A DNA stretch of 64,000 bases, taken from contig DATKWU010000009.1 of NCBI GenBank assembly GCA_035529375.1, forward strand, positions 93,848 through 157,847, in the 5' to 3' direction. The notes below the pieces were generated by a model that ran no database searches, was not told where the DNA came from, and saw only the letters and a list, made by a program, of their open reading frames with translations. Every line of letters starts with the position of its first letter. Position 1 is the stretch's first letter. The position numbers were made by a program, and so were the translations under genes. This document shows positions 5,427 through 39,795 of the stretch, piece by piece. This stretch comes from Patescibacteria group bacterium. Lineage in GTDB: Bacteria > Patescibacteriota > Microgenomatia > PFEM01 > JAHIFH01.

Positions 5427-8093
5427 TTATTCGTATTTCGGATAGCAGCATTTTTTATATTTTTTGTTCGAACCGCAAGGACAGGGGTCATTCCGACCAA
5501 CTTTCTTTTTCCGGGGAATCGCTTGTTTTGCCTGTTGAGGTTGGGCCGTTAAACCCATATTGTCTTTGGTATCAATATTAGTTTGGATTGGTTGTCTTTG
5601 GGGTTGAGGCTGGCCAATCTGAACTCTAAAGATTTGTCTAATCAGATCGTGATCAATTGAATCTAGTAATCTTTCAAAAGAAGTAAAAGCTTCCTTTTTG
5701 TATTCCACCAAAGGATCCTTTTGGCCATAACCTCTTAAACCAACGCCCTCCCTTAAATCATCCATGGCATCTAGATGATCAACCCAAAGGCGATCAATCG
5801 TTCGCAGATAAACAAACCTCTCAAGCTGGCGCATCATTTCTGAACCAATTTGCTTTTCTCTGGATTCATAAGCATCTTTTGCTAATTTTTTGAGGAGGTC
5901 TTTGATTTTTTCTGGGTCTTTAAGATCCTTTAATTGAACTTTTAATTTTCCTTGAGAATTGGTATCAAAAGGCAAAATCTCACAAAAACCGGTAACTATT
6001 TGTTCGTATTCAATCTCGACAATGCCTTCAGGAGTATAGAGAGCCACTAAGTTATCCAAATTGCTAATCATTTTCTCCTGAATCTCTTTTTTCAATTCTC
6101 CATTACTCTTATCAGCGGCCTTCAGAATCTCTTGTCTTTTCTTGTAAATAATCTCTCTTTGGCGGTTCATGACGTCATCGTATTCAACCACTCTCTTTCG
6201 CATATCAAAGTTAAAACCCTCAACTTTTGTTTGAGCCTGTTCAATTGCCTTAGAAACCATAGAGTGCTCAATCGGTTGGTCTTCAGGCAGTTTGAGGGTG
6301 GTCATCAAACCGGCAATTCTTTCACCACCAAAAAGCCTCATAATGTCATCCTCTAAAGAAACAAAGAATCTTGAAGAACCAGGATCACCCTGACGGCCGG
6401 AACGACCTCGTAATTGATTGTCGATTCTTCTTGACTCATGGCGTTCAGTCCCAATGACATGAAGACCGCCTGATTTAATCACTTGATCATGGGCTTGCTG
6501 CCATTCTTCCATAGCCTTCTTGGTTTGTTTTTCGGGTTTCGAACCGCCCAAAACAATATCCACTCCTCGACCGGCCATATTAGTCGCCACCGTGATTGCT
6601 TTTGGTCGACCAGCTTCGGTAATAATCTTGGCTTCTCTTTCGTGCTGCTTAGCATTTAAAACATTATGAGTAATACCCTTTTTGTCCAGAAACTTGGAAA
6701 CAATTTCGTTTTTTTCAATTGAGGTGGTCCCGACTAAAACGGGTTGACCTTTTTGATAACATTCCTCAATTTCTCGAACCACGGCCGCATATTTTGCCCG
6801 AACCGTTTTGTAAACAAGATCAGGATTATCTTCTCGAATCATGGGTTTGTTAGTCGGAATAACGATTGTGTCCAGGTTGTAGATTTTGATGAACTCTTCA
6901 GCTTCAGTGGCCGCCGTACCGGTCATACCCGCTAATTTTTGGTACATCCGGAAATAATTTTGGAAAGAAATGGTCGCCATCGTCACCGATTCTTGTTGAA
7001 TTTTGACATTCTCTTTGGCTTCAACCGCTTGATGCAAACCCTCTGACCAGCGGCGACCGTGCATTAATCGTCCCGTAAATTCATCAACAATAATCACCTG
7101 ATCATCCTTAACCACGTAATCACGGTCACGGAGATAATGGACTCTGGATTTAAGGGCGTTCTCAATATGATGAATCGTATCAAAGTCTTTTTCGTAAAGA
7201 TTATCAATCCCCAACCGGTTCTCAATTTTCTTAATCCCGTGTTCGGTTAAATTAGCGGTTTTAGTTTTCTCATCAGTCAAGTAATCAGTGTCTGGTGATA
7301 AACCATTAATTAACTCCGCGAATTGATAATATTTCTGGGTTGGTTCGGTGTCTGGAGCCGAAATAATCAAAGGCGTCCGAGCTTCATCAACTAAGATTGA
7401 ATCAACTTCATCAACAATGGCAAAATGATGACCGCGTTGAACCTGGTCTTCGACTCGAAGAGCCATATTATTTCGAAGATAATCAAAACCAAATTCATTA
7501 TTAGTTCCATAAGTAATATCCGCCTGATAAGCCTCTCGACGACTGATCGGCTTTAAATGTCTTAATCTTTCTTCTTGTTGTTGTTTTTCGGTGTATTGAG
7601 GATCTAAAAGAAAGGCTTGGTCATGAATAATACAACCCAAAGAAAGACCGGCGAATTGAAGAGCCTGACCGTACCAACCCGTGTCTCGACGGGCTAAGTA
7701 GTCATTAACGGTGACAATGTGAACCCCTCTCTCGGTTAGACCGTTAAGATAAGCCGCAATTGTAGATGATAAGGTTTTACCTTCTCCGGTTCGCTGTTCC
7801 GCAATCCGACCCTGATGAAGAGTAATGGCGGCCATTAACTGAACATCAAAAGCCCGCTCACCAACAGTTCGTCTAATCGCTTCCCGAGCCAAAGCAAAAG
7901 CCTCGGGGAGTAAATCATCAGCGGTTTCACCATCAGCCAATCTTTTCTTAAAAGCCGCGGTCATGCCTGAAAATTCATCATCCTTGAGCTTTTTCATTTT
8001 TGGCTCAAGCTCATTAATCTTCCCGACCATCGGTGTTAGTTTCCTAAGCTGCTTCTCGTTAGAATCAAGGAGGTGGTCAAAAAATTTAATCAT
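5427..8093 (-). CDS. secA: Preprotein translocase ATPase SecA
   Basis: 888 aa. DEAD-like motor motifs and a C-terminal zinc-binding tail (CPCGSNKKYKKCC). Confidence 0.95.
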   Translation of the reverse strand: MIKFFDHLLDSNEKQLRKLTPMVGKINELEPKMKKLKDDEFSGMTAAFKKRLADGETADDLLPEAFALAREAIRRTVGERAFDVQLMAAITLHQGRIAEQRTGEGKTLSSTIAAYLNGLTERGVHIVTVNDYLARRDTGWYGQALQFAGLSLGCIIHDQAFLLDPQYTEKQQQEERLRHLKPISRREAYQADITYGTNNEFGFDYLRNNMALRVEDQVQRGHHFAIVDEVDSILVDEARTPLIISAPDTEPTQKYYQFAELINGLSPDTDYLTDEKTKTANLTEHGIKKIENRLGIDNLYEKDFDTIHHIENALKSRVHYLRDRDYVVKDDQVIIVDEFTGRLMHGRRWSEGLHQAVEAKENVKIQQESVTMATISFQNYFRMYQKLAGMTGTAATEAEEFIKIYNLDTIVIPTNKPMIREDNPDLVYKTVRAKYAAVVREIEECYQKGQPVLVGTTSIEKNEIVSKFLDKKGITHNVLNAKQHEREAKIITEAGRPKAITVATNMAGRGVDIVLGGSKPEKQTKKAMEEWQQAHDQVIKSGGLHVIGTERHESRRIDNQLRGRSGRQGDPGSSRFFVSLEDDIMRLFGGERIAGLMTTLKLPEDQPIEHSMVSKAIEQAQTKVEGFNFDMRKRVVEYDDVMNRQREIIYKKRQEILKAADKSNGELKKEIQEKMISNLDNLVALYTPEGIVEIEYEQIVTGFCEILPFDTNSQGKLKVQLKDLKDPEKIKDLLKKLAKDAYESREKQIGSEMMRQLERFVYLRTIDRLWVDHLDAMDDLREGVGLRGYGQKDPLVEYKKEAFTSFERLLDSIDHDLIRQIFRVQIGQPQPQRQPIQTNIDTKDNMGLTAQPQQAKQAIPRKKKVGRNDPCPCGSNKKYKKCCYPKYE

Positions 8094-14585: not shown

Positions 14586-14640
14586 GACAAACCTAATTTT
14601 AGCTTAAAATAAGAAGAAAAACAAGAAATTCAAAACAACA

Positions 14641-14668
14641 AAAAACCCACCTTTTCGGTGAGTTCTTT
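14641..14668 (-). terminator. Rho-independent terminator (minus-strand transcript)
   Basis: The minus strand reads CACCGAAAAGGTG followed by GGTTTTTTGTTGTTTTG: a short GC stem plus a U-run. It sits between the GC-rich island and tRNA-Glu. Confidence 0.45.
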
Positions 14669-14714
14669 GTTAGTAAGGAAACGCAACGTCTGAATGAGAA
14701 ATAAGATAGATGGG

Positions 14715-14738
14715 GAGAGACTCCGGAGAGTCTCTCCT
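14715..14738. other. Perfect 10-bp inverted repeat (stem-loop)
   Basis: GGAGAGACTC-CGGA-GAGTCTCTCC. 10-bp stem, 4-nt loop, no adjacent U-run. Confidence 0.6.
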
Positions 14739-14799
14739 TCCGACGAAAGTATCACACAGCACTACAAAGTGAGGAGGTATTCTTTTTTTTCTAGATCGT

Positions 14800-15070
14800 C
14801 TTAGGTGAAAATCTCCTCCTTTCTCACTGCGAAAGATCTTCCGGAAACAACCAGTCCTACTTCACTCGTCCGTTGCCAGGGCCAGGCGCCGCCTATGGCT
14901 CGTTGTGCGGCGTGTGCCCGGGGACGGAGGCGTCCACGTCCACGATGCTGCGGCTTGATGTTACAGCAATCAACGTCGTCACGACACAGGGAGATCCACG
15001 ACACATACTCATCTTGCTTCTCCTACCTCTTCTCTGTTCTGTGCCAGTGAGAGATCTGACAAAAAATACC
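14800..15070 (-). ncRNA. Candidate structured ncRNA of unknown class (GC-rich island)
   Basis: About 65% GC over 14870-15000, in a genome of about 38% GC. Multiple local hairpins (GGACG-GAGG-CGTCC, GTCGT-C-ACGAC, TTGAT...ATCAA). The overlapping ORFs on both strands give Arg/Gly/Pro-rich nonsense. It sits between lon and a terminator plus tRNA-Glu on the minus strand. The strand assignment is tentative. Confidence 0.3.
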
Positions 15071-15290
15071 CTTTCTTCCTCCTTTCTTCTCTCATTAATA
15101 GCGAACGGCAAGCTGGATACAACCTTGATTATACCCAATCTGCCACTCACTATTCTTTTGAGAAAGAAAGTTAGAACGTCACGTTTCCTTTTTTAAAGTA
15201 CTGCCTTTTATCTTTTTTTTCTGCTTTTTTAGAAAAAGGATTATAGGCTGTTTCTAGTATAAAATATTTGTTTCTGTTTGTCAAGAAATT

Positions 15291-18562: not shown

Positions 18563-18636
18563 TGCGGGGTGGTGTAATGGTAGCACTGATGGCCCTGGAC
18601 CATCCGATCTAGGTTCGAATCCTAGCCCCGCAGCCA
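18563..18636 (+). tRNA. tRNA-Gln (anticodon CUG)
   Basis: TGCGGGGTGGTGTAATGGTAGCACTGATGGCCCTGGACCATCCGATCTAGGTTCGAATCCTAGCCCCGCAGCCA. U1-A72 pair typical of tRNA-Gln. Anticodon stem GATGG/CCATC with loop CCCTGGA, T arm CTAGG-TTCGAAT-CCTAG. CCA is encoded. Confidence 0.8.
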
Positions 18637-18672: not shown

Positions 18673-19821
18673 ATGAAAATATTATTAATAGACTGCGATA
18701 CTAAAATCGAAAAGGCGCTATCAGCTATGGGAGCTCGGGTATCTGTTGGAACCCTAGGTTTCGAGAGTGGTGAAAGATATATACCAGTCGCATTATATGA
18801 ACAAGACATTATCGTCTTTAATCCATCTAGTGTCTCATTTATTGAAGATGAAATTGTTGAGGAAAAAGAGGGAAAACTATACTTTCCATCAATCAAGATG
18901 ACAGGCCCTCTAGTAACGCGAGACGACATGAATGATTTTTTCGACAAAGGAGGGGTGTTTATTGTTTTCTATAATCCTTTAGTAGCCGACATTAAAAAGG
19001 AGATGGCTATTTATGAATGGCTTACTAATCAGATCATTGCAGAACCCAGCAATGATAGGGATTTAACAAAAGTAATGTTTCCCGACGATGATGAATATAT
19101 TCCATTCAAGTCATTGTTGAGAGATTTTACACCCAAAATTCCGGTTGAAAGAAAATTGTATTATATTGATGAAAAATTATATCCTAGGGTTCTCATTAAA
19201 AATATTCGAAATGATAAGATTGCCATTTTTGCTAAGAAATCGGATGGGCTTATTATTGCACTGCCTACATACGAAAAAAATAACGATGTAATTAAGCACA
19301 TAGTGAGTTATGTATATCCTCAGTTATATGAAATTGAACCAAAACTACCTAAAATATTGGATGTTAAGAAATCTCAATTACAGTTGGAATTGGAGGATGA
19401 GAGAAATAAAAAACAACAAATCATAGACAATACCCAAAAAAAGATTGAGGACATTAATAGCAAAATAATAAATGAAACCTTGAGAATAGAGAAACTTACG
19501 ACAACCGACCCTACAGCAGTTGTAATATTGGGATATCTAAACGACATTCTTGATGATCCGAAAGATAGTTTCCATGCAGCTTATAAAATAACTGAAAAGT
19601 TATCAGAAATTTACGGAGGTGATAACGCTGCGAAAACTAAACTGAATATAAACAGAGGGTTTAATTTTATACGTAGAATATCGAATGAGGCATTTAGAGA
19701 CACTCGGCATACTCCAAAACAAAATGAAGTGATAAAACCGCCCACGCCTGAAGAAAATAAAAAGCTTGTGGAGAATTCTATTGTTATTGTAAGAAAGTAT
19801 ATAGAAGAGCTGACTCAATAA
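18673..19821 (+). CDS. Hypothetical protein. First gene of the accessory segment.
   Basis: 382 aa ORF starting 37 bp after tRNA-Gln. It has an acidic central region and a coiled-coil stretch (LQLELEDERNKKQQIIDNTQKKIEDINSKI). No recognised catalytic motif. Confidence 0.5.
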   Translation: MKILLIDCDTKIEKALSAMGARVSVGTLGFESGERYIPVALYEQDIIVFNPSSVSFIEDEIVEEKEGKLYFPSIKMTGPLVTRDDMNDFFDKGGVFIVFYNPLVADIKKEMAIYEWLTNQIIAEPSNDRDLTKVMFPDDDEYIPFKSLLRDFTPKIPVERKLYYIDEKLYPRVLIKNIRNDKIAIFAKKSDGLIIALPTYEKNNDVIKHIVSYVYPQLYEIEPKLPKILDVKKSQLQLELEDERNKKQQIIDNTQKKIEDINSKIINETLRIEKLTTTDPTAVVILGYLNDILDDPKDSFHAAYKITEKLSEIYGGDNAAKTKLNINRGFNFIRRISNEAFRDTRHTPKQNEVIKPPTPEENKKLVENSIVIVRKYIEELTQ

Positions 19822-19852
19822 AGGCTTTGAAATATAGATCAACATGGTGAGA

Positions 19853-19891
19853 GTTATAAGGTCTAGACGGGGGCAGACCGGTATGCTCAGC
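19853..19891 (+). repeat. R-repeat copy A (GTTATAAGG + TCTAGAC-GGGGGCAGACC-GGTATGCTCAGC, with an internal partial duplication)
   Basis: Matches the 23-bp family consensus GGTTCTAGACCGAYCYGCTCAGC, with an 11-bp insertion that duplicates AGACC. It lies 32 bp after the stop of the 382-aa gene. Confidence 0.7.
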
Positions 19892-19982
19892 AAAATTTAT
19901 AGAAGTTCCGATCGACCGAGGGTTCTCTTTTAAAAATTAATCAACTGAGAAAATTTCGGAATGAAAAAAGAATAATAATTCT

Positions 19983-21896
19983 ATGAAAAACCAACTAGTG
20001 ACCCTTGCAGCAATAAAAAGCTTTTATGAATCTGGTTGCGATTTCATTGACGTATTCTCTAACCTTGTATTACAAGAAATACCTACCAAGCCGATAATAA
20101 TAATAAATATACAACAAAAAGTTATTGATGAGTGGAATATTAATATTCCACTTGATGTAATAAGAACAATAGTTAAAAGACTAAAAAGAAAGTCACTTAT
20201 AGATTATAAAAATAGAGAGGAATCAATTTGGACGACGAGTGATGGTGAAACAGAGAAAATAAAGATCAAAAGCACAATAGACAGTACAAAAAGAGAAAGT
20301 CTCGCCCTAATTAAAAAATTAAAAATCTTCATTGAGAAAAAAAGTCGTAAAAAAATCAATTCCTCTAATGTTTCTCGAGCACTCGATGCATTTATTCATA
20401 AAAATTACTACAGTGTGGCATCAATATTAGCAAAAGAACAACAACCAACCTATCCACAACTCCAAATCGAAAAAATGATTATGGATTTTTTTATTAAGAC
20501 AGAGGAATCCGATCCTGAAAATTTTGAAAGACTAAAAGCCATAGTATATGGGAAAATTATTTCTTCTGTATTAGTAAGCCAAAGGAAAAATTTTGTGAAA
20601 GAGGCAAAATTTGAACCCCTTGATATTTATCTAGATACAAACATTTTATTTAGTGTTATGGGATTACATGAAGAATCTTTTAATAAACCCGCTAGAGAGT
20701 TGATAAAAATTCTAAAAAAATTAGGTTTTAATCTATTCATTTTTGGTTTTACACGAGATGAGGTTGTAGCCAAACTAAAAGATTTTATACGTGAGTATGA
20801 TAATTATTCTGAACAAATACCAGTAGACTCAATATACTACCAACTAAAACGATTAGGTTTCTCAAAACAAGACATTATTTTGAAGATTCAAAAAATTGAG
20901 GAAGAACTTAAAGCTCTTGGTATAGAAATAGATTACCAATGGGACATTGATAAATTGCTTGACGAGAGAGAAGAAAAATTACAAAAACTAGAAGAGAAAA
21001 AGTTAAAATCAGGTTACTCTATAAAACATGATATAGCAGCTATTGAGGCAATCAGACAAATACGGGGAAAGCGGGTATATTTGATTGAAAAATCTAAGGC
21101 AATATTTTTAACAGCGGATAGTAGGCTTTCTATTTTTAGCTTTAAAAACTATGATCATAAGTTAAATAGTTCTCTACCGGAGGTAATTTTTAGAACTGAA
21201 TTGACTAGCATCTTGTGGTTAAAAAATCCCGGCATAAATCCTAGTATGCCCATTCATGATCTTATAGCAGGCTATGCTAAGAATTTTCTTTTAAAAGTCT
21301 CTCTTTGGGAAAAGTTTATTGCCGAAATTAAAAGACAAAAAAAACAAGGAAAAATAAATGATGAAGACATTTCAATATTAATCTCTAGCAACGAAACAGA
21401 AAAAATTCTTTTTGATATTCAGTCTGGCGCTCAAAAAGAAAACTACATTCCATTATTAATTGATGAACAAATAAGAAAAAGAAAAAAAGAAAAAAAACTC
21501 AAAGAAAAAGAAATAGAACACCTGAAAAAGAAAGAACAAGGGATAAGACAAGAATTAAATAGCTTGAGGAAACAAATAGAAAAATATGAAAATATCAAGA
21601 AGTCAATTAGGAGTCATTGTGAAAAAAAATGGAATTTTATTCTAAATTTCCTAATTTGCTTGATTGCAATAGTAATTTCTAGATTATTGATCTTGTTTAT
21701 TTTAAAAGTTGGCTTGGGTTTATTTGAGAGCTTAACGTCTCTAACAGTATTTTTAGTCATTTTGTGGTCTACTATTTCTCTCATATCGGAAAAAGATTTC
21801 AAATTTTTAAGCTTTATGGTCTCTTTTAAAAAAAAATTAAAACAAAAACTGATTAAAAATTCTATCGATAAAAATTATAAAAAGTTTGGCTTGTAA
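19983..21896 (+). CDS. Large hypothetical protein with a PIN-like nuclease signature and a C-terminal membrane anchor
   Basis: 637 aa. The central segment LDIYLDTNILFSVMGLHEESF...FTRDEV...FLTADSRL resembles the PIN-domain acidic quartet (D, E, D, TxD). There are long Lys/Glu coiled-coils and two C-terminal TM helices (FILNFLICLIAIVISRLLILFIL, LTVFLVILWSTISLI). Confidence 0.5.
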   Translation: MKNQLVTLAAIKSFYESGCDFIDVFSNLVLQEIPTKPIIIINIQQKVIDEWNINIPLDVIRTIVKRLKRKSLIDYKNREESIWTTSDGETEKIKIKSTIDSTKRESLALIKKLKIFIEKKSRKKINSSNVSRALDAFIHKNYYSVASILAKEQQPTYPQLQIEKMIMDFFIKTEESDPENFERLKAIVYGKIISSVLVSQRKNFVKEAKFEPLDIYLDTNILFSVMGLHEESFNKPARELIKILKKLGFNLFIFGFTRDEVVAKLKDFIREYDNYSEQIPVDSIYYQLKRLGFSKQDIILKIQKIEEELKALGIEIDYQWDIDKLLDEREEKLQKLEEKKLKSGYSIKHDIAAIEAIRQIRGKRVYLIEKSKAIFLTADSRLSIFSFKNYDHKLNSSLPEVIFRTELTSILWLKNPGINPSMPIHDLIAGYAKNFLLKVSLWEKFIAEIKRQKKQGKINDEDISILISSNETEKILFDIQSGAQKENYIPLLIDEQIRKRKKEKKLKEKEIEHLKKKEQGIRQELNSLRKQIEKYENIKKSIRSHCEKKWNFILNFLICLIAIVISRLLILFILKVGLGLFESLTSLTVFLVILWSTISLISEKDFKFLSFMVSFKKKLKQKLIKNSIDKNYKKFGL

Positions 21897-21913: not shown

Positions 21914-21936
21914 GGTTCTAGACCGACCTGCTCAGC
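21914..21936 (+). repeat. R-repeat copy B (GGTTCTAGACCGACCTGCTCAGC)
   Basis: Exact match to the family consensus, 18 bp after the stop of the 637-aa gene. Confidence 0.8.
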
Positions 21937-22032
21937 TAGGAAAAGCTCGATTTAACAAACTTTTCCGATTTGTAGTAGAACTTTTGACATGAGAACTAGG
22001 TCCCAAATTTTTAGTTTTTTAGAAAGGCATTG

Positions 22033-22105: not shown

Positions 22106-22537
22106 ATGTCTGAAACACTGAAACCACCCTCTCAAGAATTCAGTCTACCTAGTACAGAAGAGGTAATAGACTTAATCCATAAACTACGGGATCTAATACT
22201 AACTGACTGTAGCGTTCATTATAAACATATACGTGGTTATGGTGACGGTCAGGCTCTAGACGTTGATTTTCCTGACGGTAGCCAAAGAGAATTAGTCTGG
22301 ATAGACCGTGGAGACGAGGAGGGAATATTAGCGTGGAACGATAGGAAAAAACCTTCTGTTTTTAGTGAAAGAGATAATTATAATTTGATTCATGTTGATC
22401 CTGATAAACCTGCCGTTCAAATTGCGGGAATTAGGCCTAATAAAAGTAATCCAATTGGTTTTGCTTGGGTTAAATTTGTAGACTGGGGTGATTTTTGCAA
22501 TCTTCTTTCCCTAGCACAAAAAATTGAAGAGGCTTAA
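22106..22537 (+). CDS. Hypothetical protein
   Basis: 143 aa ORF preceded by a consensus promoter. No recognised motif. Confidence 0.5.
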   Translation: MSETLKPPSQEFSLPSTEEVIDLIHKLRDLILTDCSVHYKHIRGYGDGQALDVDFPDGSQRELVWIDRGDEEGILAWNDRKKPSVFSERDNYNLIHVDPDKPAVQIAGIRPNKSNPIGFAWVKFVDWGDFCNLLSLAQKIEEA

Positions 22538-22668
22538 CTTTTTCTTTCATTAAATATTATTATTGTTCAAAAAGTTTTTATAATTTCAGTTAAATTAACC
22601 TCAGAATAAGAAAACAAGCCTCAGAAGGTCCTTAGGAAGTACAAAAGTGTAAAAACTTCATCGATTTT

Positions 22669-22729
22669 TGATAAACTATTCTTGGAAAGATAAATTTATA
22701 AGTTCGGAAATCATCAACAAGTGCCAGCC
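22669..22729 (+). repeat. S-repeat copy 1 (TGATAAACTATTCTTGGAAAGATAAATTTATAAGTTCGGAAATCATCAACAAGTGCCAGCC)
   Basis: About 60 bp and nearly identical to the copy at 38895-38954. It ends 17 bp before the likely HIT start codon. The ORF track's TTG start at 22668 translates this repeat. Confidence 0.75.
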
Positions 22730-22745
22730 AAGAACCAGAATATTT

Positions 22746-25277: not shown

Positions 25278-25622
25278 TTATTTACCTGTTATACAACTCT
25301 CGTCAATTTCAGAAGTGCGGCAAATCAACAACTCACCATCTTCTTCAATAATGTTTCCAATAAGATCACTGCCGCATTTGCACATTTCAATATCTCTTCC
25401 TCCATGTCCATCATCACAAAATTCCTTTCTAACCTTGCCTGGTTTAAAGACGGTATCACAACCAATACAAACCCGTCGGTATCCTTGATCGAAAGCCTCT
25501 CTTAAAGTTAAACCATTTCCATCTGCTGAATTGTCTTCAAACTTGGAATCTTTTTCGCTCATTTTTAGGTAATTAAAAACTGCCCCTTCGGACAGTGAAT
25601 GTATTATAACACCTTTCTTCAA
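25278..25622 (-). CDS. Hypothetical Cys-rich small protein
   Basis: 114 aa. Several CxxC-like pairs (CIGCD, CKCGSD). Confidence 0.4.
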   Translation of the reverse strand: MKKGVIIHSLSEGAVFNYLKMSEKDSKFEDNSADGNGLTLREAFDQGYRRVCIGCDTVFKPGKVRKEFCDDGHGGRDIEMCKCGSDLIGNIIEEDGELLICRTSEIDESCITGK

Positions 25623-25652
25623 ATAAATAAATAAAATAGCTCAAGTGATTTT

Positions 25653-25725
25653 TGATAAACTAACTCGGGAATAAGATATAATATCAACTAATTTTGAGGT
25701 TCGGAAATCATCCACGAGTCCCAGC
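25653..25725 (+). repeat. S-repeat copy 2 (TGATAAAC...TATAAT...GGTTCGGAAATCATCCACGAGTCCCAGC)
   Basis: Shares the TGATAAAC head and the 27-nt GTTCGGAAATCATC-N-ACGA-N-TCCCAGC tail with the other S copies. Lies 235 bp upstream of the GH130 gene. Confidence 0.6.
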
Positions 25726-25961
25726 AAGATTGGACACAAAGCGACCGTAAACTCTCAAATAGGTCGATAACACTTGCTAAACCTCTACTTTGTTTTTAGG
25801 AGTTTCGGACCGTATCCTTGTTATTTAGGAGATTTTGTTTTTGTTATAATTTCCTTTCTAACCATAAACCGAGGCTCAACAGATTGTATTGGTCTTTTTT
25901 GATACAATGTCAGTGTCCTCATGCTCCTTTTGAAATAACGTAAGTTTAAAAGAGTTTAATA

Positions 25962-38806: not shown

Positions 38807-38894
38807 ACTTGAAATTTTAATATATTATGCCCTATAAGGCAAACTAAACTTTATATTTTAAAAAATTGTAAATTATAGAAATTTAGCTGTCATT

Positions 38895-38954
38895 TGATAA
38901 ACTATTCTTGGAAAGATAAATTTATAAGTTCGGAAATCATCAACGACTCCCAGC
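38895..38954 (+). repeat. S-repeat copy 3
   Basis: Near-identical to copy 1 (TGATAAACTATTCTTGGAAAGATAAATTTATAAGTTCGGAAATCATCAACGACTCCCAGC). Lies 74 bp upstream of the gene at 39028. Confidence 0.75.
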
Positions 38955-39027
38955 TAGAAAAAGACCTATTTGTTGGGCTTTTTTGTTTGTGGTTTTGTTA
39001 AAAGGCGTGTTTTGGTAAAATAAAAAC

Positions 39028-39657: not shown

Positions 39658-39723
39658 AAATTTAAACTAGTTATAACTTCGTCCACAAGGAAAACCTAAA
39701 TCTGTAGAAATTTGATTGACTTC

Positions 39724-39784
39724 TGATAAACTAAGGCAGGATGGTCCAAGTTGATGGTTCGGAAATCATCAACGACTCCCAGCC
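39724..39784 (+). repeat. S-repeat copy 4 (TGATAAACTAAGG...GTTGATGGTTCGGAAATCATCAACGACTCCCAGCC)
   Basis: Contains a 7-bp stem GTTGATG/CATCAAC around GTTCGGAAAT. Ends 11 bp before the likely GNAT start. Confidence 0.7.
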
Positions 39785-39795
39785 AAAAAGGTTTT

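Follow-up and report, generated by a model that had tools for sequence, protein, structure and literature searches.

PIN toxins are classical examples of addiction modules, and the proteins PrrC and RloC join an ABC-ATPase domain at the N terminus to an anticodon nuclease domain at the C terminus. PrrC is reported to be silenced by the restriction enzyme to which it is linked and released by a phage anti-restriction factor (PMC2610378). PIN-like nucleases have been found in apparent transcriptional coupling with subunits of restriction-modification (RM) systems of type I, sometimes without antitoxins, and the same survey found no PIN genes next to type II RM systems (Matelska et al. 2017, PMC5499597). 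LdgA and DdgA, anti-phage genes without recognizable homology that reportedly occur almost only in Patescibacteria, came out of functional metagenomic selections (PMC12366544, 2025). This article concerns two genes, here called A and B, that follow a tRNA-Gln gene in 64,000 nucleotides (nt) of DNA from a Patescibacteria group bacterium (PFEM01; JAHIFH01; assembly GCA_035529375.1, contig DATKWU010000009.1, positions 93,848 to 157,847, forward strand), a stretch referred to throughout as the window. Patescibacteria are ultra-small episymbiotic bacteria for which, to our knowledge, very few defense systems are known and almost nothing is available on phage resistance.

Gene A (18673-19821, + strand) encodes a 382-amino-acid (aa) protein that begins MKILLIDCD, and it starts 37 nt downstream of tRNA-Gln (anticodon CTG; 18563-18636, + strand; called by ARAGORN and matched by the Rfam tRNA model at 57.9 bits). 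Gene B (19983-21896, + strand) encodes a 637-aa protein and has the lowest GC content, 0.286 (z score, -2.15), among the 63 window open reading frames (ORFs) of at least 100 aa. The ORF list, ARAGORN, Rfam, and a repeat search all agree with the layout given in an earlier note on this DNA, namely, ORFs of 382 and 637 aa 3' of tRNA-Gln, each with a copy of a short repeat, R, after it. That note had gone on to read the two genes as a module. Do they in fact belong together? The profiles of both families were run with hmmsearch against all ORFs of 13 other loci that carry a B relative and 5 other loci that carry an A relative (comparison loci are numbered with an L below); for a 14th other B locus, L021, the absence of A was read from its gene table. 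The two families occur together in the window only. Elsewhere each is found alone, with neighbors that vary between loci, and an all-against-all BLAST of these neighbors gave no conserved partner for A or B. The earlier note had itself tied the pair to conservation of the partner, and since none was found, the pair hypothesis fails. Genes A and B are most likely adjacent but independent uncharacterized accessory genes, not a conserved pair. Adjacency beside a tRNA gene is insufficient for calling a multigene system, and in this case a simple co-occurrence test split the supposed module.

What, then, are these genes? The explanation that we favor, and consider reasonably probable, is that the DNA 3' of tRNA-Gln is a small variable region holding two independent, single-gene pieces of defense-island cargo, in which B would be a membrane-tethered accessory nuclease and A a candidate sensor-plus-effector protein.

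Architecture and neighborhoods of gene B

Among the matches listed, 41 proteins of the B family have an E value of 1e-3 or lower, including the window protein and one 358-aa fragment. They are mostly 560 to 710 aa long and mostly from Patescibacteria (metagenome-assembled genomes). An AlphaFold2 model of the window protein, made with a 39-sequence alignment, has a pLDDT of 85.5 and a pTM of 0.72. Residues 1-121 (19983-20345, + strand) form a PadR-like winged helix-turn-helix followed by a long helix, an assignment that comes from both profile and structure searches. The B profile matched the PadR family in PDB sequences (E values of 0.005 to 0.04, profile positions 22-111), and Foldseek matched the N terminus to PadR/MarR structures with a probability of 1.0 and a target TM of 0.6 to 0.72. 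One member of the family also has an HTH_45 match.

The central part of the protein is a PIN-like nuclease domain with a helical insertion (residues 214-415; 20622-21227, + strand), recognized from the alignment, from sub-threshold Pfam matches, and from Foldseek. The earlier note had picked out the strings LDIYLDTNILF, HEESF, FTRDEV, and FLTADSRL, all of which are present in the ORF, and had proposed a Foldseek search with an AlphaFold model to test residues 205-390 for a PIN/NYN fold; such a search gave PIN matches, and the domain is placed at 214-415. Its conserved residues are D218 (in YLDTN), E260 (FTxDE), H349-D350, R361, E369, D379 (FLTAD), E400, and W412. D218 and D350 are invariant, and E260, D379, and E400 are each found in at least 90% of the 39 B sequences. 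In the model, the strand at 214-217 ends in D218, E260 comes after the strand at 250-254, and the strand at 373-377 ends in FLTAD379. The invariant H349-D350, followed by R361 and E369, comes after the helical insertion. At the domain level, Foldseek matched the AF1683 PIN protein (1w8i; probability, 0.99; target TM, 0.58), a VapC (7vwo; probability, 0.98; TM, 0.53), and VapC2 (3zvk; probability, 0.8; TM, 0.56). Weak Pfam matches to PIN, PIN_3, and PIN_8 appear in 6 of the 39 family members. The PDB-sequence profile search with B returned PadR only and no PIN protein. The claim of a PIN nuclease therefore stands as far as motifs and structural matches go (VapC and AF1683, probabilities of 0.8 to 0.99), and falls short at the level of sequence scores, which lie below threshold. 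Put differently, a PIN fold with a conserved acidic site is supported by the structure model and the motifs, and not by sequence statistics.

The resemblance to VapC is the closest in chemical terms. VapC has an hhhDTN motif at the end of strand 1 and a Glu ~42 residues later, after strand 2, as B does. By eye, the VapC segment D97-x-x-I-A-G-H-A ... V-T-N-N resembles H-D350-x-A-A-I-x-A-I ... F-L-T-A-D379 of B, and in our own reading of the two alignments, also by eye, D350 and D379 would correspond to VapC D97 and N115. The elements of B that recall these parts of VapC are a helix with D-x-x-I-A-A and a strand with hhhT-x-[DN]. B differs from VapC in being five times larger, in having a helical insertion in the PIN core, and in its additional PadR-like winged helix, coiled coil, and membrane hairpin. 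A VapBC-type pair was considered and rejected, as there is no conserved antitoxin; the genes upstream of B are variously hsdM, a YgjP-like gene, a methylase, an OLD ATPase, an ABC-F protein, and gene A.

The C-terminal part of B is a coiled coil that leads into the membrane. Residues 486-548 (21438-21626, + strand) are a Lys/Glu-rich coiled coil, which the model draws as a continuous helix from 486 to 576, and residues 549-602 (21627-21788, + strand) hold two hydrophobic helices that make up a membrane hairpin (Kyte-Doolittle values above 1.6, and the model). The hydrophobic segments lie at ~549-573 and 585-602, and so the coiled coil runs into the first membrane helix. The model helices in this region are 486-576, 578-601, and 608-634, of which the last is a basic, amphipathic C-terminal helix. 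Hydropathy and the model helices thus bear out the coiled coil and two C-terminal membrane helices described in the earlier note. The tail keeps its hydrophobic columns both in the family at large and in the distant plasmid homologues introduced below, and weak DUF2207_C-type matches in 15 family members reflect this tail.

Where are B genes found? In 12 of the 14 other B loci an RM component lies within 5 kb (a raw count, uncorrected for the background around random Patescibacteria genes), and the RM systems are of types I, II, and III. Two loci (L011 and L014) have the order hsdM-B-hsdS, with abutting or overlapping reading frames, and in two more (L005 and L017) type I hsdM, hsdS, and hsdR and a YgjP-like gene are followed by B. 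In L016 B comes after EcoP15I-like Mod and Res genes (type III) and a 266-aa gene. The type II neighbors include an N4/N6 methylase and a CfrBI-like enzyme directly upstream of B (L019) and a Tsp45I-like enzyme and a methylase, which B follows after 4 nt (L021). Elsewhere, B lies between D12-class and N4/N6 methylases (L003), after a C5 methylase/HinP1I and an OLD-family ATPase (L006), upstream of a C5 methylase and an Eco47II-like enzyme (L015), or 223 nt upstream of an HsdR-like gene (L013). L012 has an S24 peptidase, B, a 225-aa gene, and Shedu, with a methylase at 1.6 kb. In L020 an OLD-like ATPase and an integrase are near B and no RM gene is present within the flanks seen, and in L022 nothing recognizable is near B within the flanks seen. 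Large serine recombinases recur near B loci. The YgjP-like metallopeptidase gene, at 6136-6804 of L005 and 8982-9746 of L017, stands between hsdR and B in both cases.

Distant homologues of B also turned up on plasmids (tblastn against plasmids), with 21 to 26% identity and the same length and architecture: 645 to 697 aa, arranged as winged helix, PIN-like domain, and membrane tail. They include a gene on the Enterococcus faecium plasmid pNY2032-2 (L025, 3900-5858; WP_010706231.1), one on a Pantoea plasmid (L023, 5419-7356), and one on a Hymenobacter plasmid (L024, 5482-7575) that adjoins a methylase, a DEAD-box helicase, and CHAT proteins. In six clinical E. faecium plasmids, insertion sequence (IS) elements flank the B homologue. 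The plasmid proteins all have D218, D350, R361, W412, and W442, and E260 is kept as well. Relatives of B or A in viruses were found neither in IMG/VR (by pattern search) nor among GenBank phages, and these collections thus lend no support to a phage or viral origin. For both families, a defense-island or mobile context, as the earlier note had suspected, is apparent from the RM, recombinase, and IS neighbors at the fetched loci.

What might B do? Because the B family travels with RM operons of types I, II, and III, we infer that it is an accessory or second-line nuclease, abortive infection-like in its action and quiet in uninfected cells. It would be a membrane-tethered, PIN-like, Mg-dependent nuclease whose soluble part is wholly cytoplasmic. 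The PadR-like winged helix may serve in binding DNA or another nucleic acid and/or in dimerization, and may allow autoregulation. Once a phage passes or disables restriction, the targets of B would be RNA or, at the membrane, nucleic acid that is invading the cell. The membrane anchor may hold the enzyme at the site of phage DNA entry or tie its activation to events in the membrane. B would be independent of any one restriction enzyme, being co-transferred and often co-transcribed with restriction systems. As B is found with three RM types and sometimes with none, a self-contained second-line or abortive infection nuclease is the more economical reading.

The genomic logic of PrrC and RloC, that of a latent RNA-cutting enzyme encoded in or beside a type I hsd operon, is shared by B where the order is hsdM-B-hsdS. 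Embedding of this kind is seen in L011 and L014 and nearly so in L005 and L017, and is absent from the window. B is not itself a member of the PrrC/RloC family: no such Pfam or NCBIfam match was found in B or its 39 relatives, and the fold is PadR plus PIN. It is also unlikely that B has a specific physical partner as PrrC has in EcoprrI, since B occurs with type I, II, and III RM systems and with none. By analogy, the chemistry of B would be most like that of a VapC-type PIN toxin and its genomic logic like that of PrrC/RloC, with membership in neither at the levels tested. In contrast to the PIN genes surveyed earlier (PMC5499597), B relatives do adjoin type II RM systems (L019 and L021). 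B may thus be viewed as a well-defined variant of the known theme of restriction-linked PIN nucleases.

Gene A and its relatives

Gene A has 9 close relatives in word-indexed searches, and an exhaustive profile search gave 36 full-length representative clusters at E values below 1e-30. It has no match in Pfam, NCBIfam, PHROGs, or PADLOC, the PDB-sequence profile search was empty too, and no hydrophobic membrane segment was found. Its AlphaFold model (41-sequence alignment) has a pLDDT of 91.9. Residues 1-220 (18673-19332, + strand) form an alpha/beta domain that, by Foldseek against PDB, resembles class I glutamine amidotransferases of the STM3548 or IFT52-GIFT type. The top match is 2gk3 (STM3548; E value, 2.4e-6), with 3soz and 5fmr also found, and the domain further matches amidotransferase subunits of the PabA and GuaA types (E values of 2.4e-6 to 1e-3 over the set) and some glycosidase middle domains. 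A fold search against viral structures with A gave nothing relevant. Because of its first residues, the earlier note had called the protein loosely receiver-like. This idea can be set aside: there is no Response_reg match in Pfam, no CheY-type structure is among the top 50 Foldseek matches, and the fold is the amidotransferase-like one.

The structural matches to STM3548/STM1381, proteins of unknown function, and to the IFT52 GIFT domain are the best for A 1-220, and their TM values are modest (0.3 to 0.55). A differs from these proteins in its extra coiled coil and C-terminal domain and, apparently, in the loss of the Cys nucleophile. At the presumed nucleophile elbow (strand 95-99, helix 107-115), A has a conserved F99-x-N101, and no Cys or His is conserved there among the 41 sequences. 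The domain thus apparently lacks the catalytic Cys and has Asn101 in its place, a reading that rests on the alignment and secondary structure and not on superposition. The residues that are conserved, D7, C8, G26, G29, Y42, E43, D128, N177, P198, and N203, are located at strand ends, an arrangement that is suggestive of a binding pocket.

Beyond this domain, residues 235-278 (19375-19506, + strand) form one long helix (DSSP on the model), a coiled-coil-like linker, and residues 280-381 (19510-19815, + strand) a helical C-terminal domain delimited by the alignment. The near-invariant residues of the latter are K305, N338, D343, R345, H346, and P348, with the consensus ANxSYxDxRHAP. The same C-terminal domain also ends many ~220-aa proteins with an unrelated N terminus, and the first 55 residues of A are likewise found in other architectures. 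No Pfam family was matched by 10 fragments of the C-terminal domain or by ten proteins that share only the N- or C-terminal region of A. A HEPN domain was considered and found no support in the tests run, as the motif D343-x-R345-H346 has adjacent Arg and His rather than R-x(4-6)-H, and no match to a HEPN model of Pfam was found in the 10 domain fragments even at E values up to 10. A weak HEPN match (E value, 0.0012) occurs in one of the 85 A and B family proteins scanned.

How might such a protein work? A would be a cytoplasmic protein that acts separately from B. Its N-terminal domain probably binds a ligand rather than hydrolyzing glutamine, and this ligand sensing would control the C-terminal module through the coiled coil. 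The D-x-R-H motif suggests catalysis or phosphate binding.

The neighborhoods of A relatives, too, are of an accessory kind. In L002 A lies between an Eco47II-type RM system and a reverse transcriptase with an AAA_15 ATPase, in L009 it is 4 kb from a type I RM system, and in L010 it adjoins a C5 methylase. In L008 a serine recombinase and a PLD nuclease come after A, and in L001 it is near MazG-like and SLFN-type helicase genes. Mutually homologous MazG-like genes are found within 1.5 kb of A at two unrelated loci (8495-8830 of L001 and 2726-3157 of L009). The layout of a tRNA gene followed by A is likewise seen in L001, where the A relative (6276-7442) begins 46 nt after tRNA-Asn (6156-6230) on the same strand; the tRNA differs from that of the window (Asn versus Gln), and the arrangement is alike.

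Weighing the possible roles

Neither gene could be assigned to a known family, nor could the earlier note make such an assignment from sequence alone. PADLOC, Pfam, NCBIfam, and PHROGs gave nothing at threshold for A or B or for 85 members of their families, and a PADLOC scan of 85 A and B family members produced only scattered weak matches of the coiled-coil type, e.g., to LeoBC in 4. For two pieces of defense-island cargo, several results are awkward and weigh against the explanation favored here. PADLOC-DB v2 has no match for A, B, or their 143-aa neighbor. For the nuclease in particular, the whole-chain Foldseek E values of the PIN matches are only ~0.1, and the Pfam PIN match on B residues 215-293 has an E value of 0.025 and scores 15.6 bits against a cutoff of 23.6. 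An hhalign comparison with an alignment of 7 VapC sequences (from pSLT and six other plasmids) placed D218 and E260 on VapC D6 and E41 without significance (probability, 1%; E value, 0.05). The plasmid homologues have Asn, as VapC does, in place of D379 and do not keep E400, and so the exact catalytic set of B is uncertain. As for genomic context, besides the count of RM neighbors being a raw one, a tblastn search with 13 RM proteins from B loci found no RM genes in the window, and none are present within the flanks seen in L020 and L022; B therefore cannot strictly need an RM system. The GC content of gene A is ordinary (z score, -0.86). Finally, L008 shares with the window a 493-aa gene and greA upstream of A. 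Identities between the two are 44% for A, 47% for the 493-aa gene, and 41% for greA, and a divergence of A close to that of its neighbors has the look of vertical descent, not of cargo that moves.

Could A and B still be a true two-component defense or abortive infection system, in which A senses infection and B is the nuclease effector, anchored in the membrane? The genes are neighbors on the same strand, separated by 161 nt in which no terminator is predicted, and both belong to families seen in defense-type neighborhoods. Against this stand the zero co-occurrence in 14 other B loci and 5 other A loci, the changing neighbors, the different GC contents (0.337 in A and 0.286 in B), and the R copy that separates the two genes just as R copies separate unrelated genes farther along. 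A system of this kind is very improbable. A reading that concerns B alone makes it either a selfish, stabilizing module of the addiction or toxin kind or a regulator of RM operons, of PadR type and tethered to the membrane, with a PIN-like domain that is regulatory or degenerate. The winged helix at its N terminus is the fold of a transcription factor family, methylase and specificity genes share operons with B in tight coupling, D379 has become Asn in distant homologues, and PIN toxins coupled to type I RM systems without antitoxins are on record (PMC5499597). Yet D218, E260, and D350 are kept across very distant homologues, which would argue for catalysis, and it would be odd for a dedicated regulator to accompany three mechanistically different RM types or to occur without any. 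The protein, at ~640 aa and with a membrane anchor, also resembles no known controller protein, which counts against regulation. We regard this alternative as unlikely.

It could also be asked whether A, B, or both simply have an ordinary cellular role, B in membrane-associated RNA processing and A in metabolism or structure, with neighbors that are coincidental given the tight gene packing of small Patescibacteria genomes. A is syntenic with greA in L008, from a related genome, at housekeeping-like divergence, ordinary enzymes and housekeeping genes surround the window locus, and phage and viral collections contain no matches. Ordinary roles would sit poorly, however, with so patchy a distribution (~40 B proteins and a few dozen A clusters at 50% identity out of billions of proteins), with neighbors that differ in every locus, with the RM components that 12 of the 14 B loci have within 5 kb, with B relatives on plasmids between IS elements, and with B having the lowest GC content of the window ORFs; we think them rather improbable. 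Two independent cargo genes, B as membrane-tethered accessory nuclease and A as candidate sensor-plus-effector, remain our preferred explanation. A bolder form of it is conceivable, though we hold it to be doubtful. B would then be an unrecognized membrane-tethered family combining PIN and PadR-like winged-helix domains that provides a general second layer for all three RM types, i.e., a PrrC analogue not tied to one enzyme, common in Patescibacteria and diverged on plasmids of E. faecium, Pantoea, and Hymenobacter. Gene A would add another new single-gene defense, its D-x-R-H domain being an effector or sensor module of a new kind that the ~220-aa proteins have as well, and either gene might be one of the Patescibacteria defense genes reported in 2025. 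The description of LdgA and DdgA would fit A or B, a comparison made by description alone and useful as a lead only; B differs from them in having recognizable folds.

What would such a role mean? A nuclease family that is regularly found beside RM operons is a concrete candidate for a second line of immunity and possibly for a sensor of anti-restriction. The distant B relatives on clinical Enterococcus plasmids make B testable in a tractable host. Both genes are good candidates for follow-up, yet they are among many unvalidated defense-island families.

The tRNA-Gln region and its repeats

A tRNA-integrated island would be expected to have a repeat of the tRNA 3' end at its far border, an integrase, and deviant composition. 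No integrase is close to genes A and B, compositional deviation is confined to gene B, and the 3' end of tRNA-Gln is not directly repeated anywhere in the 64-kb window. Among 24 scanned ORFs between 18.7 and 43.4 kb there is no integrase-type Pfam match. The surroundings consist of ordinary enzymes and housekeeping genes. A 143-aa ORF after gene B (22106-22537) has no match in Pfam, NCBIfam, PHROGs, or PADLOC and no counterpart adjoining other B loci.

R is a repeat of ~40 nt (aGTTATAAGGATAGAAAGGnnCTAGACCnnnnnGCTCAGC) with the consensus aGTTATAAGGATAGAAAGG-nn-CTAGACC-n5-GCTCAGC. It has 14 copies, all on the + strand, between 19.87 and 46.7 kb (window positions 19851-46728), whose cores start at 19873, 21918, 23204, 24047, 29298, 29870, 30690, 32186, 34293, 37717, 38354, 40349, 41518, and 46711. 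The copy after gene A (~19851-19892, + strand; GAGTTATAAGGTCTAGACGGGGGCAGACCGGTATGCTCAGC) is degenerate and partly duplicated and has no significant hairpin (z score, -1.7). The copy after gene B (21914-21943, + strand) has a perfect core, CTAGACCGACCTGCTCAG, at 21918-21935, and no hairpin (z score, -0.55). The window contains the core pattern 19 times, compared with 6.5 +/- 2.7 times in shuffled sequences. Twelve of the 14 copies are just 3' of a + strand gene, and R is found next to obg, typA/bipA, and fabD as well. Each of two single minus-strand genes has R copies on both sides, and CTGTCTCATTTGTCTCATTT is found ~40 nt upstream of several copies.

Do these repeats mark a cassette system particular to the A and B unit? 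With 14 copies, and with housekeeping genes flanked as well, they do not. Nor could R be given another known identity. Six copies folded no better than shuffled sequences (z scores from -1.7 to +1.5), and the copies matched no Rfam family; the lack of a hairpin and of an Rfam match speaks against a terminator or a known RNA. An integron attC site is rejected because of the lack of folding above shuffles and because R also flanks obg, typA, and fabD.

Two further elements of the window deserve mention. A GC-rich, noncoding stretch of ~440 nt (14640-15080, minus strand) separates lon from tRNA-Glu. Its folding is better than that of each of 100 shuffles (z score, -2.9), it has a hairpin and a U run at its end, and it reaches the gathering score of no Rfam family; it may represent a structured RNA of an unclassified kind. 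Another repeat family (...TGATAAACTA...GGTTCGGAAATCATCAACGAnTCCCAGC) is present at 22637-22732, 25621-25729, 38870-38958, and 39692-39787. Its copies overlap small enzyme genes (HIT, methyltransferase, and GNAT) at their 5' ends or in the regions upstream, and might represent a leader, a promoter, or an N-terminal coding segment that these genes have in common.

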